Shown piece after piece: positions 30,001-36,000 of a stretch of 64,000 nt of DNA. The stretch lies in the NCBI RefSeq assembly GCF_055900595.2, contig NZ_CM148325.1, one strand, 5' to 3'. Within the stretch, counting starts at the first letter, position 1. The number at the start of each line of letters is the position of its first letter. Made by a program: the position numbers.

Positions 30001-33000
30001 GCATGGGCGTCCTGAACATCCTGTTCGGTCAGGCCAACATAAGGTAAACCTTCAGCCAATGAGGTCGTGCCAGGATTGAACCAGGTGGTTTCTTTAAGAG
30101 CAACCAGATCCTTTACCAACGGATACTGGGCGATGAGCGAGTTCATTTTAGCGTTTTCCATAGTATGTCTCTTTGCGCTTCGATGATAAATGACAGCAGG
30201 AATGTGCCCGCCAGAGCGACGACTGAAGCGATAAATGTCGCTGTCGTATAGTATTTATATGTTTCACTGAGCGTAGCGCCGCAAAATTGTTTCATCAGCC
30301 AGAAAAACGAGTCCGTAACGATCGTGCAGCCAATCGCAATAATTTCCGGGCTGATGTCTGGTTACAGCCACAGCACAATGATCCATATTTATATTTTTTC
30401 TCCGGGTGGGTGATGCCAGTCGGCATGTTTTACCTACTTGTCTGCATGGTGACTCGTTGGCGAGAACAGAGGCGGAATTGGTTACAATTGTCCGGGAATT
30501 CTTGTTATTTTTTACTGTATTGTCGTGTCGGGTGATAGGACGTTAAGAATATCGCTGGATCTCGCCAGTGACGTCTGTTTCTGCTACAGTGCCCGTTTTA
30601 CGGCAAACGGCTTGGGTATGGCTTCATTAAAGGATGTCGCACGCCTGGCGGGAGTGTCGATGATGACTGTCTCCCGGGTGATGCATAATGCAGAATCTGT
30701 GCGTCCTGCAACGCGTGACCGCGTATTGCAGGCAATCCAAACCCTGAATTATGTTCCTGATCTTTCCGCTCGTAAGATGCGCGCTCAGGGACGTAAGCCG
30801 TCGACTCTCGCCGTGCTGGCGCAGGATACTGCTACCACTCCTTTCTCTGTTGATATTCTGCTTGCCATTGAACAAACCGCCAGCGAGTTTGGCTGGAATA
30901 GTTTTTTAATCAATATTTTTTCTGAAGATGACGCTGCCCGCGCGGCACGTCAGCTGCTTGCCCTCCGTCCGGATGGCATTATCTATTCTACAATGGGACT
31001 GAGGCATATCACGCTGCCTGAGTCTCTGCATGGTGAAAATATTGTATTGGCGAACTGTGTGGCGGATGACCCAGCGTTACCCAGTTATATCCCTGATGAT
31101 TACACTGCCCAATATGAAGCAACACAGCATTTGCTCGCGGCAGGCTATCGTCAACCGTTATGCTTCTGGCTACCGGAAGGTGCGTTGGCAACAGGGTATC
31201 GTCGGCAGGGATTTGAGCAGGCCTGGCGTGATGCTGGACGAGATCTGGCTGAGGTGAAACAATTTCACATGGTCATAGGTGATGATCACTACACCGATCT
31301 CGCAAGTATACTCAATGCCCACTTCCCGTCTGGAAAACCAGATTTTGATGTTCTGATTTGTGGTAACGATCGCGCAGCCTTTGTGGCTTATCAGGTTCTT
31401 CTGGCGAAGGGGGTACGTATCCCGCAGGATGTCGCCGTAATGGGCTTTGATAATCTGGTTGGCGTCGGGCATCTGTTTTTACCGCCGCTGACCACAATTC
31501 AGCTTCCACATGACATTATCGGGCGGGAAGCTGCATTGCATATTATTGAAGGTCGTGAAGGGGGAAGGGTAACGCAGATCCCTTGCCCGCTGTTGATCCG
31601 TTGTTCCACCTGATATTATGTTACCCCAGTTGCCAGAGTGCTCCATGTTTCAGCACGGCCACTCCGTGGGCGGCATAGAGCGACAGTTCCCGTTCTTCTG
31701 GCTGCGGATAGATTCGGCTACTCATCACTGCTTCCCCGTCGTTAATAAATACTTCCACGGATGATGTATCGATAAATATCCTTAGGGCGAGCGTGTCACG
31801 CTGCGGGAGGGGAATACTACGGTAACCATCTAAATTCTCGTGTGGGTAATACCGCCACAAAACAAGTCGCTCAGATTGGTTATCAATATACAGCCGCATT
31901 CCCGTGCCGAGCTGTAATCCGTAATGTTCGGCATCGCTGTTCTTCAGAGCCCAGTGCAACTGAATCTCAACCGCTTGCGCGTTTTCCTGCAAAACATATT
32001 TGTTGCTGATTGTGTGGGGAGAGATTGATTGATGCTGCTGGCGTAACGACTCAGCTTCGTGTACCGGGCTTTGTAGGAGTTTGCCATTGCTCTCTGATAG
32101 CTCGCGCGCCAGCGTCATGCAGCCTGCCCAGCCTTCACGTTTTGAGGGCATTGGCGATTCCCACATATCCATCCAGCCGATAACAATACGCCGACCATCC
32201 TTCGCTAAAAAGCTTTGTGGTGCATAAAAGTCATGCCCATTATCAAGTTCAGTAAAATGCCCGGATTGTGCAAAAAGTCGTCCTGGCGACCATATTCCGG
32301 GTATTACACCACTTTGAAAGCGATTTCGATAATTGTATCCCTCGGCATTCATTCCCTGCGGGGAAAACATCAGATAATGTTGATCGCCAAGGCTGAAAAA
32401 GTCCGGACATTCCCACATATAGCTTTCACCCGCATCAGCGTGGGCCAGTACGCGATCGAAAGTCCATTCACGCAATGAACTGCCGCGATAAAGCAGGATC
32501 TGTCCCGTGTTGCCTGGGTCTTTCGCCCCGACTACCATCCACCAGGTGTCGGCTTCACGCCACACTTTAGGATCGCGGAAGTGCATGATTCCTTCTGGTG
32601 GAGTGAGGATCACACCTTGTTTCTCGAAATGAATACCATCCCGGCTGGTAGCCAGACATTGTACTTCACGAATTGCATCGTCATTACCTGCACCATCGAG
32701 CCAGACGTGGCCGGTGTAGATAAGTGAGAGGACACCATTGTCATCAACAGCACTACCTGAAAAACACCCGTCTTTGTCATTCTCGTCTCCTGGCGCTAGC
32801 GCAATAGGCTCGTGCTGCCAGTGGATCATATCGTCGCTGGTGGCATGTCCCCAGTGCATTGGCCCCCAGTGTTCGCTCATCGGGTGATGCTGATAAAACG
32901 CGTGATAACGATTGTTAAACCAGATCAGGCCGTTTGGATCGTTCATCCACCCGGCTGGAGGCGCGAGGTGAAAATGGGGATAAAAAGTATTCCCCCGGCG

Positions 33001-36000
33001 CTCGTGAAGTTTTGCTAGTGCGTTTTGCGCCGCATGCAATCGAGATTGCGTCATTTTAATCATCCTGGTTAAGCAAATTTGGTGAATTGTTAACGTTAAC
33101 TTTTATAAAAATAAAGCCCCTTATCTTTATAAATGTGATTAATATCACAAATGTTAACGTTAACTATGACGTTTTGTGATCGAATGTGCATGTTTTAGTA
33201 AATCCATGACGATTTTGCGAAAAAGAGGTTTATCACTATGCGTAAGTCAGATGAATTTGAGGGAAAAAAATGTCAGCCAAAGTATGGGTTTTAGGGGATG
33301 CGGTTGTCGATCTCTTGCCTGAATCAGACGGGCGCCTACTGCCTTGTCCTGGCGGCGCGCCAGCTAACGTTGCGGTGGGAATCGCCAGATTAGGCGGAAT
33401 AAGTGGGTTTATAGGCCGGGTGGGTGATGATCCTTTTGGCGCGTTAATGCAAAGAACGCTGCTAACTGAGGGAGTCGATATCACGTATCTGAAGCAGGAT
33501 GAATGGCACCGAACATCCACGGTGCTTGTCGATCTGAACGATCAGGGGGAACGTTCATTTACGTTTATGGTCCGCCCTGGTGCCGATCTTTTTTTAGAGA
33601 CGACTGACTTGCCCTTCTGGCGACATGGCGAATGGTTACATCTCTGTTCTATTGCGTTGTCTGCTGAACCTTCGCGTACCAGCGCATTTACTGCGATGAC
33701 GGCGATCCGGCATGCCGGAGGTTTTGTCAGCTTCGATCCCAATATTCGTGAAGATCTGTGGCAAGACGAGCATTTGCTCCGCTTGTGTTTGCGACAGGCG
33801 CTACAACTGGCGGATGTCGTCAAGCTCTCGGAAGAAGAATGGCGACTTATCAGCGGAAAAACACAGAACGATCGGGATATATGTGCTCTGGCAAAAGAGT
33901 ATGAGATCGCCATGCTGTTGGTGACTAAAGGTGCAGAAGGGGTGGTGGTCTGTTATCGAGGACAAGTTCACCATTTTGCTGGAATGTCTGTGAATTGTGT
34001 CGATAGCACGGGGGCGGGAGATGCGTTCGTTGCCGGGTTACTCACAGGTCTTTCCTCTACGGGATTAGAGACCGATGAGAGAGAAATGCGACGAATTATC
34101 GATCTCGCTCAACGTTGCGGAGCGCTTGCAGTAACGGCGAAAGGGGCAATGACAGCGCTGCCATGTCGACAAGATCTGGAATAGTGAGAAATAAACGGCG
34201 AGGCCGTTCTTGTCTCTGAATAGGACGTGAATATTTTAACGACAGGCAGGTAATTATGGCACTGAATATACCATTCAGAAATGTGTACTATCGTTTTGCA
34301 TCCAGTTACTCATTTCTCTTTTTTATTTCCTGGTCGCTGTGGTGGTCGTTATACGCTATTTGGCTGAAAGGACATCTAGGGTTGACTGGGACGGAATTAG
34401 GTACACTTTATTCGGTCAACCAGTTTACCAGTATTCTATTTATGATGGTCTACGGCATCGTCCAGGATAAACTCGGTCTGAAGAAACCGCTTATCTGGTG
34501 TATGAGTTTCATCCTGGTCTTGACCGGACCGTTTATGATTTACGTTTATGAACCGTTACTGCAAAGCAATTTTTCTGTAGGTCTAATTTTGGGGGCGCTC
34601 TTTTTTGGCTTGGGGTATCTGGCGGGCTGCGGTCTGCTTGATAGCTTCACCGAAAAAATGGCACGAAATTTTCATTTCGAATATGGAACAGCGCGCGCCT
34701 GGGGATCTTTTGGCTATGCGATTGGCGCGTTCTTTGCTGGCATATTTTTCAGTATCAGTCCCCATATCAACTTCTGGTTGGTTTCGCTATTTGGCGCTGT
34801 ATTTATGATGATCAACATGCGTTTTAAATATCAGGATCAGCAGTGCGTAGCGGCAGATGCGGGAGGGGTAAAAAAAGAGGATTTTATTGCAGTTTTCAAG
34901 GATCGAAACTTCTGGATTTTCGTCATATTTATTGTGGGGACGTGGTCTTTCTATAACATTTTTGATCAACAGCTCTTTCCTGTTTTTTATGCAGGTTTAT
35001 TCGAATCACACGATGTAGGAACGCGCCTGTATGGTTATCTCAACTCATTCCAGGTTGTACTCGAAGCGCTGTGCATGGCCATTATTCCTTTCTTTGTTAA
35101 TCGGGTAGGGCCAAAAAATGCATTACTTATCGGTGTTGTGATTATGGCGTTGCGTATTCTTTCCTGCGCACTGTTCGTTAATCCCTGGATTATTTCATTA
35201 GTGAAGCTGTTACATGCCATTGAGGTTCCACTGTGTGTCATTTCCGTCTTCAAATACAGCGTGGCAAACTTTGATAAGCGCCTGTCGTCGACGATCTTTC
35301 TGATTGGTTTTCAAATTGCCAGTTCGTTGGGGATTGTGTTGCTTTCAACGCCGACTGGAATACTTTTTGACCATGCAGGTTACCAGACGGTTTTCTTCGT
35401 AATTTCGGGTATTGTCTGCCTGATGTTGTTATTTGGCATTTTCTTCCTGAGTAAAAAACGTGAGCAAATGGTGATGGAAACGCCTGTACCTTCTGCAATA
35501 TAGACGTAAACTCTTTCCGGTTGTTGTCGATAGCTCTATATCCCTCAACCGGAAAATAATAATACCCAAATGCTTAGCGCGGCTAATAATCGCCTAATCC
35601 AAACGCCTCATTCATGTTCTGGAACAGTCGCTCAAATGTACTCATGATACGCGGTTCGCTGATTTCCAGGAAATTGTCGTAATTCAGCGACCTGTCCCGT
35701 GTATCACGGGCCTGCTAATCCATCAAGGAATGCATTGCGGAGTGAAGTATCGAGTCAAGCCAGATTTCGCGATCAGGATTCTGTGTGATGATTACATTGC
35801 CAGGCCCGGGGCTGTTTAGTCATCGCCGCACAGTGCTGAGATTTCAACCTGTTGCAGGGAAAATGAGTAGATTTAGGGCAAGTGTGCTGCCAAACCCAAC
35901 TTTTACGCGGGGAAGGTAGATTTCGTTGGAAGGATAAATGGTGTCCCCTGCAGACATCTACTTGAGGCGGCAGGGGATTGATTGGAATGGTGTTTTTTAG

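Follow-up and report, generated by a model that had tools for sequence, protein, structure and literature searches.

The variable region beside argW in Escherichia coli holds either the D-serine genes dsdCXA or the sucrose genes csc, and the choice between csc and dsd at this locus is an established niche marker of the species. The csc type, to which enterohaemorrhagic E. coli (EHEC), most of phylogroup B1 and phylogroups D and E belong, makes slow use of sucrose, is poisoned by D-serine and has its type III secretion repressed by it; strains of the dsdCXA type, such as uropathogenic E. coli (UPEC) and neonatal meningitis-associated E. coli (NMEC), thrive in D-serine-rich urine. In the csc type, cscR, cscA, cscK and cscB stand next to a truncated dsdX and to dsdA (cscRAKB/dsdX'-dsdA), a configuration already published, reportedly in Jahreis 2002 and Moritz & Welch 2006, and in O'Boyle 2020. 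Here, a stretch of 64,000 nucleotides filed as E. coli (contig NZ_CM148325.1 of assembly GCF_055900595.2; the whole stretch is hereafter called the window) is compared with these systems, and its argW-dsd variable region (positions 30162-35503) almost certainly carries the 'csc-type' allele in its standard E. coli form.

Published descriptions of the cscRAKB/dsdX'-dsdA configuration cover EDL933, E. coli W, EC3132 and many other strains (PMC7486766, PMC4366372, PMC3032704, PMC11251922). In EC3132 and E. coli W, where csc has been defined experimentally, it is a four-gene sucrose pathway independent of the phosphotransferase system (PTS), situated, like the window's, between argW and a truncated dsdX, repressed by CscR and dependent on CRP (PMC3032704, PMC11251922, PMC3938415); the likeness of these two loci to the window is drawn from their published description and from the comparison with O157. 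CscR represses divergent operons and CRP-cAMP is required for their expression (PMC11251922, PMC3938415), and two 12-bp inverted repeats together with a Crp site were found in the cscA-cscK intergenic region by Jahreis et al., as described in PMC11251922. The Citrobacter freundii locus Cf_csc encodes homologous CscB, CscK, CscA and CscR proteins with conserved operators, but differs in that cscA and cscR are each inverted (PMC11251922). The Scr system also confers sucrose use, but it is PTS-based and consists of the genes scrA, scrB, scrK, scrR plus scrY (PMC11251922). In published surveys, csc was present in 35-37% of isolates, being found throughout phylogroups D and E and almost throughout B1, seldom in B2 and not at all in A and F (PMC11251922).

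Truncation of dsdX and absence of dsdC

The layout of the window was taken from a six-frame list of open reading frames (ORFs), from NCBIfam and Pfam scans and from the annotation of E400634, all of which agree. E400634 is a 99.9% identical genome annotated by the Prokaryotic Genome Annotation Pipeline (PGAP), and it contains the same genes as the window, including a DsdX-family pseudogene labelled 'missing N-terminus'. The D-serine ammonia-lyase gene dsdA (28833-30161, minus strand, 442 aa) was identified from its ORF and its match to TIGR02035, and it is intact, as a first-pass annotation of this DNA had claimed: the protein scores 808 bits against this D-serine ammonia-lyase equivalog (cutoff 368), is identical to K-12 DsdA at 431 of 442 residues (98%), and retains the SGSIKARGG motif around K118 as in K-12. 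In M11957, a csc-positive genome, the dsdA stop codon TAA has become TCA TAA (its locus 6181-7512), so that DsdA is one residue longer, a trivial variant.

Upstream of dsdA, only the end of dsdX remains (30182-30375, minus strand), as attested by tblastn, DNA alignment, NCBIfam and the PGAP pseudogene in E400634. This remnant has 64 codons, close to the 60 or so that had been noticed at first, and consists of K-12 codons 375-445 minus 7 codons, plus two nucleotides of codon M374. When K-12 DsdX was searched against the window by tblastn, residues 374-445 alone were matched, at 30376-30182 (E 3e-28), and the match to the NCBIfam DsdX equivalog was limited to profile positions 379-445; a full-length DsdX, which is a GntP-family transporter of 445 aa, is therefore lacking. 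The alignment to dsdX that the first-pass annotation had anticipated is thus obtained, and the span that it had given, 30176-30362, is within a few bases of the true one at the dsdA end but 13 bases short at the junction end.

The junction was located by DNA alignment with K-12 and, base by base, with three csc-positive genomes, O157:H7 F6321, TUM13936 and M11957. It lies within dsdX codon M374 (A|TGCTG...), with dsdX homology stopping at window position 30375, and the breakpoint base is identical in all four csc-positive sequences aligned, the window's included. Thus, the junction proposed earlier is shared, to the base, with these three genomes. In contrast to this common breakpoint, three lesions of the remnant occur in the window but in none of F6321, TUM13936 and M11957, namely an in-frame 21-bp deletion of the AIAIGSG codons, a nonsense change at Y378 (TAT to TAA) and the loss of the native stop codon (TAA to GAA, 30179-30181). 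The deletion, having arisen in the window's lineage, explains why the remnant has 64 codons rather than the ancestral 71.

Because the native stop of dsdX has been lost, a 50-codon ORF (30143-30295) runs 19 nt into dsdA. The last 38 residues of DsdX are retained in this ORF, which is confined to this lineage and changes the sequence that immediately precedes the dsdA ribosome-binding site. The ORF is probably meaningless, and its candidacy as a real small protein is unsupported, as it is limited to the window's lineage and sits in a neutrally drifting region.

A tblastn search with K-12 DsdC across the window revealed no dsdC, as had been stated before; its sole match, 35% over DsdC residues 15-141, falls on an unrelated LysR gene (37596-38480). 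Hence, the LysR-type activator that stands beside dsdX in dsdCXA strains is missing here. Compared with the dsdCXA locus of K-12 and CFT073, the window shares the flanks, emrKY-evgAS on one side and argW/attR-torI on the other, a 98% identical DsdA and homology to the last 71 codons of dsdX, but it lacks dsdC, the first 373 codons of dsdX and the control region between these two genes. These parts, about 2.4 kb of K-12-type sequence, are replaced by 5.56 kb of csc-associated DNA (30376-35937).

The csc regulon and its control region

The csc-associated DNA begins with a non-coding spacer (30376-30617), delimited by alignment with csc-positive genomes, which reaches from the breakpoint to the start of cscR and contains the promoter region of cscR; every csc-positive genome compared has it in conserved form apart from indels, and it shows 6.6-8.7% divergence from three other lineages. 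It is followed by cscR (30618-31613, plus strand), which encodes a full-length LacI-family repressor of the csc regulon (331 aa, from its ORF and family scans), and by cscA (31621-33054, minus strand), which encodes a GH32 sucrose hydrolase or invertase (477 aa; 479 bits against TIGR01322, scrB_fam, with Glyco_hydro_32N/C domains). Beyond the divergent control region lie cscK (33270-34184, plus strand), for a PfkB-family fructokinase (304 aa; 501 bits against the fructokinase equivalog NF006957, cutoff 450), and cscB (34256-35503, plus strand), for a sucrose:H+ symporter of the LacY family in the major facilitator superfamily (415 aa; LacY_symp, 637 bits). The four genes said at first to follow the dsdX remnant are therefore all present and intact (30618-35503), and their products, at 415, 304, 477 and 331 aa for CscB, CscK, CscA and CscR, are full length and equal in length to those of O157 and to the PGAP models. 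The order and orientations, cscR> <cscA cscK> cscB>, with cscA and cscKB divergently transcribed, and the chromosomal placement, with argW on one side and a 5'-truncated dsdX and then dsdA on the other, are those of the csc regulon.

The predicted control elements are also in place. Scans for palindromes and CRP sites delimited a divergent cscA/cscKB control region (33088-33165), in which the CscR operator palindrome TGTTAACGTTAACT is found at 33088-33101 and 33152-33165, giving two predicted operators, and between these, at 33134-33149, stands the perfect CRP consensus TGTGATTAATATCACA. The operator pattern GTTAACGTTAAC has only two matches in the 64 kb, against 0.15 expected by chance; both are in the cscA-cscK intergenic region, and this arrangement agrees with the one described in PMC11251922. 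No CscR-operator-like palindrome was found near dsdA or cscR in the palindrome scan, so that direct control of dsdA by CscR is not supported, in agreement with O'Boyle 2020. In addition, a sigma-70 consensus scan gave fewer promoter-like matches than its shuffled controls did, with no match upstream of either dsdA or cscR, and an Rfam scan of 28-36 kb gave no match. CscB carries the wild-type residue at all five gain-of-function positions checked, L51, C327, Q353, L363 and F371.

Among the closest known loci is that of O157:H7 (z3623-z3626 in EDL933; strain F6321 was used), in which gene order, orientations and the dsdX breakpoint at codon 374, as well as the spacer, operators, CRP site and a DUF4942 fragment 3' of cscB, are the same as in the window. 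The proteins are 96.4-97.9% identical (96.4% for CscR), while the DNA is 3-4% diverged and the window's remnant has its three extra lesions. A further difference is found beyond the csc side, which adjoins an HK620/Sf6-type attR/torI in the window, but a recombinase-family gene and other DNA in O157.

The right-hand boundary at argW

Downstream of cscB, a degenerate DUF4942 gene fragment with an in-frame stop (35583-35816, minus strand; PF13708, E 9.5e-8), annotated in O157, TUM13936 and M11957, accompanies csc in all csc-positive genomes compared. The right-hand limit of the csc-associated DNA is a 16-bp copy of the argW 3' end, ATGGTGTCCCCTGCAG, at 35938-35953, recognized as an attR core by comparison with K-12 and M11957. 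K-12 has the same sequence, named pawZ there, as attR of its CPS-53 prophage, with torI following; in the prophage-free M11957, the DNA 3' of cscB leads through the DUF4942 fragment directly into tRNA-Arg (argW) and then yfdC. The gene next to this copy in the window is torI/xis (36027-36227, minus strand; torI is annotated in E400634), which belongs to an HK620/Sf6-type argW prophage remnant and is context rather than csc, the attR-torI stretch being 98% identical to the HK620/Sf6 attP-xis region. As the 64-kb window contains no tRNA gene, argW itself must lie beyond it.

Four deposited Escherichia phage records, ON470594, ON470589, ON470608 and ON470622, match window positions 30252-36282, with csc genes right at the end of each record. 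In ON470594 and ON470589, the match runs on through attR into the excisionase (torI) gene, and one of the four extends back into the dsdX remnant. The presence of csc in these records may reflect either mis-set prophage boundaries or specialised transduction by argW-integrating phages.

Prevalence, lineage and age

A junction probe of 491 bp, counted as spanned at a coverage of at least 80%, was compared with 5426 complete E. coli genomes and was spanned in 2658 of them (49%), and the whole dsdA-csc block was found in 2645. With about half of complete genomes carrying the junction and the configuration already published, the arrangement is known and ordinary. The first-pass annotation was right that it had been reported before, agreeing with the literature on EDL933 and E. 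coli W in placing csc at the dsdC/dsdX position with truncation of dsdX, but its restriction to some E. coli lineages understates by far how common it is. The plasmid records that contain the whole csc block are 0.37-4.9 Mb long, and those of megabase size look like chromosomes filed as plasmids; on plasmids of ordinary size, matches were limited to GH32 genes about 73% identical to cscA, which is the sole scr-like signal. There is no evidence of a true plasmid-borne csc among the plasmid matches. What is new in the present locus amounts to minor additions: the extra lesions of the remnant, the exclusion by proxy of a second dsdC, the sharing of the junction by a lineage that has diverged by about 4%, and the difference in selection that separates dsdA from the dsdX remnant.

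Over the core genes frc-oxc-yfdV-yfdE (16000-21300), identity to nearly all of the 5400 complete E. coli genomes is uniform, at about 96.0-96.3%, and only 18 records reach at least 99% identity, which argues that the window comes from a rare deep-branching lineage filed as E. coli, possibly like cryptic clade I. Against O157:H7, DNA identity is 95.9-96.8% for the csc genes, 94.5-94.8% for emrK and emrY, and 97.4% for dsdA, so divergence of the csc block appears to be roughly on a par with that of the flanking core genes. The simplest account of this similarity, and of the identical breakpoint, would be one old event that predates the split of the lineages. Because the breakpoint falls on the same base in every aligned csc-positive genome and the junction is present in 49% of genomes, a single ancient illegitimate recombination beside argW is proposed, after which the allele would have been inherited and transferred between strains by homologous recombination. 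That a lineage about 4% apart from mainstream E. coli has the identical junction would then imply an old, long-maintained two-allele polymorphism.

Consequences for D-serine and sucrose

In this mechanism, the loss of dsdC would have left dsdA intact but without its activator. The arrangement is known to give weak, non-inducible dsdA expression and D-serine sensitivity (PMC7486766), and in EHEC, the wild-type arrangement shows only low dsdA reporter activity (PMC7486766). D-serine is toxic because DsdC-dependent induction of dsdA is lost while uptake goes on via CycA and SstT; of the impaired uptake and induction predicted earlier, induction is accordingly the part that is lost, whereas uptake continues through these two transporters. 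Deletions that place dsdA under cscAp reactivate it (PMC7486766), and reactivation of dsdA by deletions across cscR may likewise be possible in the window.

For sucrose, the steps established for these protein families would apply here as follows, as far as the sequence allows prediction. CscB would import unphosphorylated sucrose with a proton, CscA would split it in the cytoplasm into glucose and fructose, and CscK would phosphorylate the fructose; CscR, a LacI-type repressor, would bind both 12-bp palindromes within the divergent promoter region of cscA and cscKB, and CRP-cAMP would activate from the site between them. Sucrose-inducible, CscR-repressed growth on sucrose via csc has been shown for E. 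coli W and O157 (PMC7486766, PMC3938415). Since cscR is intact and CscB is wild-type at the five positions, the best prediction is the wild-type phenotype of slow use of sucrose or use at high concentration. The earlier expectation of a sucrose-positive strain is too strong, as csc usually supports only slow growth or growth on high sucrose. The practical value of the window lies in its annotation and in the prediction of these two phenotypes, slow or high-concentration sucrose use and D-serine sensitivity.

Selection on dsdA and the dsdX remnant

The ratio of nonsynonymous to synonymous substitution rates (dN/dS) between the window and O157 is 0.10 for dsdA, 0.19 for cscR, 0.07 for cscA, 0.11 for cscK and 0.065 for cscB. 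For dsdA, it is 0.10-0.12 between the window and four other alleles, and 0.02-0.15 in all ten pairs among the five alleles, including pairs in which both strains are csc-positive. In the dsdX remnant, by contrast, 5.2-6.7% of sites differ from other genomes, mostly with amino-acid changes in the old frame, and the remnant, which also has its deletion and two stop changes, appears to have drifted as neutral DNA, whereas at a similar depth of divergence (dS about 0.09), dsdA still has a dN/dS near 0.1 and 98% protein identity. Such strong purifying selection on dsdA beside a decaying neighbour suggests that the gene is not simply dead weight, and the identical junction in a diverged lineage would also imply that dsdA is still under selection without its regulator.

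Rather than being a merely silent relic, dsdA of the csc-type allele may be retained because selection favours some function of it that is independent of DsdC and DsdX, a suggestion that we offer tentatively and would rate below an even chance. Such a function could be, for example, low constitutive detoxification of D-serine imported by CycA, or expression linked to csc transcription. The constraint might instead stem from repeated re-import of dsdA alleles from dsdCXA-positive strains, since the dsdA of the csc-positive TUM13936 is almost identical to that of K-12 (dS 0.013), and alleles thus cross backgrounds; for the window, this is less likely, as its dsdA allele is about equally distant from all others.

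Alternative explanations

It is very improbable that different lineages acquired csc at the dsd locus in repeated, independent events through a recombination or insertion hotspot. The region adjacent to argW has indeed been described as a recombination hotspot with several configurations (PMC11251922, PMC4366372), and csc at the ends of the four phage records, beside attR and torI, hints at possible phage-mediated transfer; however, independent entries would hardly have hit the same dsdX base in four aligned lineages, including the window's at about 4% divergence, with the same spacer and DUF4942 fragment flanking csc in all compared genomes and one and the same junction spanned in 2658. The data are compatible with repeated homologous transfer of a single original allele, but not with repeated independent insertion. 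Slighter still is the chance that a second complete dsdCXA elsewhere keeps D-serine catabolism going, with the local truncation having no phenotypic effect. Two dsdCXA copies are reportedly common in K1 strains, according to the title of Moritz & Welch 2006. Moreover, csc together with a retained dsdC, or with both loci complete, occurs in some isolates (PMC11251922). A chimeric probe, composed of 1200 bp of the window's junction and cscR followed by 600 bp of K-12 dsdC, matched in three places in some csc-positive genomes, such as H106, H107, H109 and H116, which would be compatible with a dsdC elsewhere if the extra places matched the dsdC part of the probe. In contrast, the probe found one place in each of the 25 genomes (25/25) whose junction is at least 98% identical to the window's, and it matched no plasmid in the collection. 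No second dsdC was thus found with this probe in the 25 closest complete genomes, and the window itself has neither dsdC nor a full-length dsdX. These results support, by proxy, a source genome without a second dsdC, and, of the full-length dsdX or dsdC that the first-pass annotation had envisaged as a counter-argument, neither appeared in the window and no second dsdC appeared in these relatives.

A strain that is sucrose-negative, or very slow under ordinary test conditions, in spite of intact-looking csc genes is unlikely but deserves much more weight than either of the above. Of 29 csc+ scr- isolates, slow or very slow growth on sucrose was seen in 23 and no growth in five, four of which had no obvious lesion (PMC11251922); wild-type csc is de-repressed only above 1% sucrose, unless cscR or cscB carries a mutation (PMC3938415), and the window has a full-length cscR and none of the five gain-of-function changes in CscB. 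On the other hand, its four csc ORFs are intact and under purifying selection (dN/dS 0.07-0.19), its operators and CRP site are intact, and O157:H7, with a locus 96-97% identical, grows on sucrose as sole carbon source (PMC7486766). Slow or high-concentration use of sucrose from a standard csc-type allele of single origin remains the preferred reading, and several points weigh against parts of it. The right breakpoint is not placeable to the base, because about 60 bp beside argW are weakly similar between the allele types; the single origin is drawn from four aligned junctions and megablast coverage counts rather than from a phylogeny; a second dsdCXA outside the visible 64 kb is excluded only by proxy, through relatives; and some isolates with apparently intact csc loci fail to grow on sucrose (PMC11251922), the phenotype here being a predicted one.

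Neighbouring genes and the island beyond torI

On the dsdA side, the ORF list, the NCBIfam and Pfam scans and the annotation of the relative place evgS and evgA at 21375-25587 (minus strand) and emrK and emrY at 26003-28704 (plus strand). The emrY-dsdA intergenic region (28629-28828, 200 bp) is only about 80% identical to that of O157:H7, with a 21-base indel, and is far more diverged than both neighbouring genes.

Shortly beyond torI, within the argW prophage remnant, a gene for a PACE-family efflux transporter (37034-37492, minus strand; NF033665, 206 bits, two BTP domains) is divergent from a LysR regulator gene (37596-38480, plus strand), whose best match is AceR at 127 bits, below the cutoff. 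This pair looks like cargo of a mobile element, because E400634, a close relative, lacks it at this position. After the short prophage remnant, the DNA at 39381-57571 is rich in insertion sequences, with IS3-type elements at 39381-40220 and 48115-49161, IS30-type elements at 40118-41083 and 56420-57571, and an IS10-like element (transposase 52386-53594; RNA-OUT 52324-52393). The last appears to split an autotransporter gene into a passenger part with VID and PATR domains (50238-52316) and a part with autochaperone, pertactin and beta-barrel domains (53607-55073). Two further Rfam matches at gathering level lie in this island downstream of the prophage remnant, the Hfq-binding small RNA isrC (47980-48102, 150 bits) and domains D1-D4 of a group II intron (58698-58849, 89 bits).

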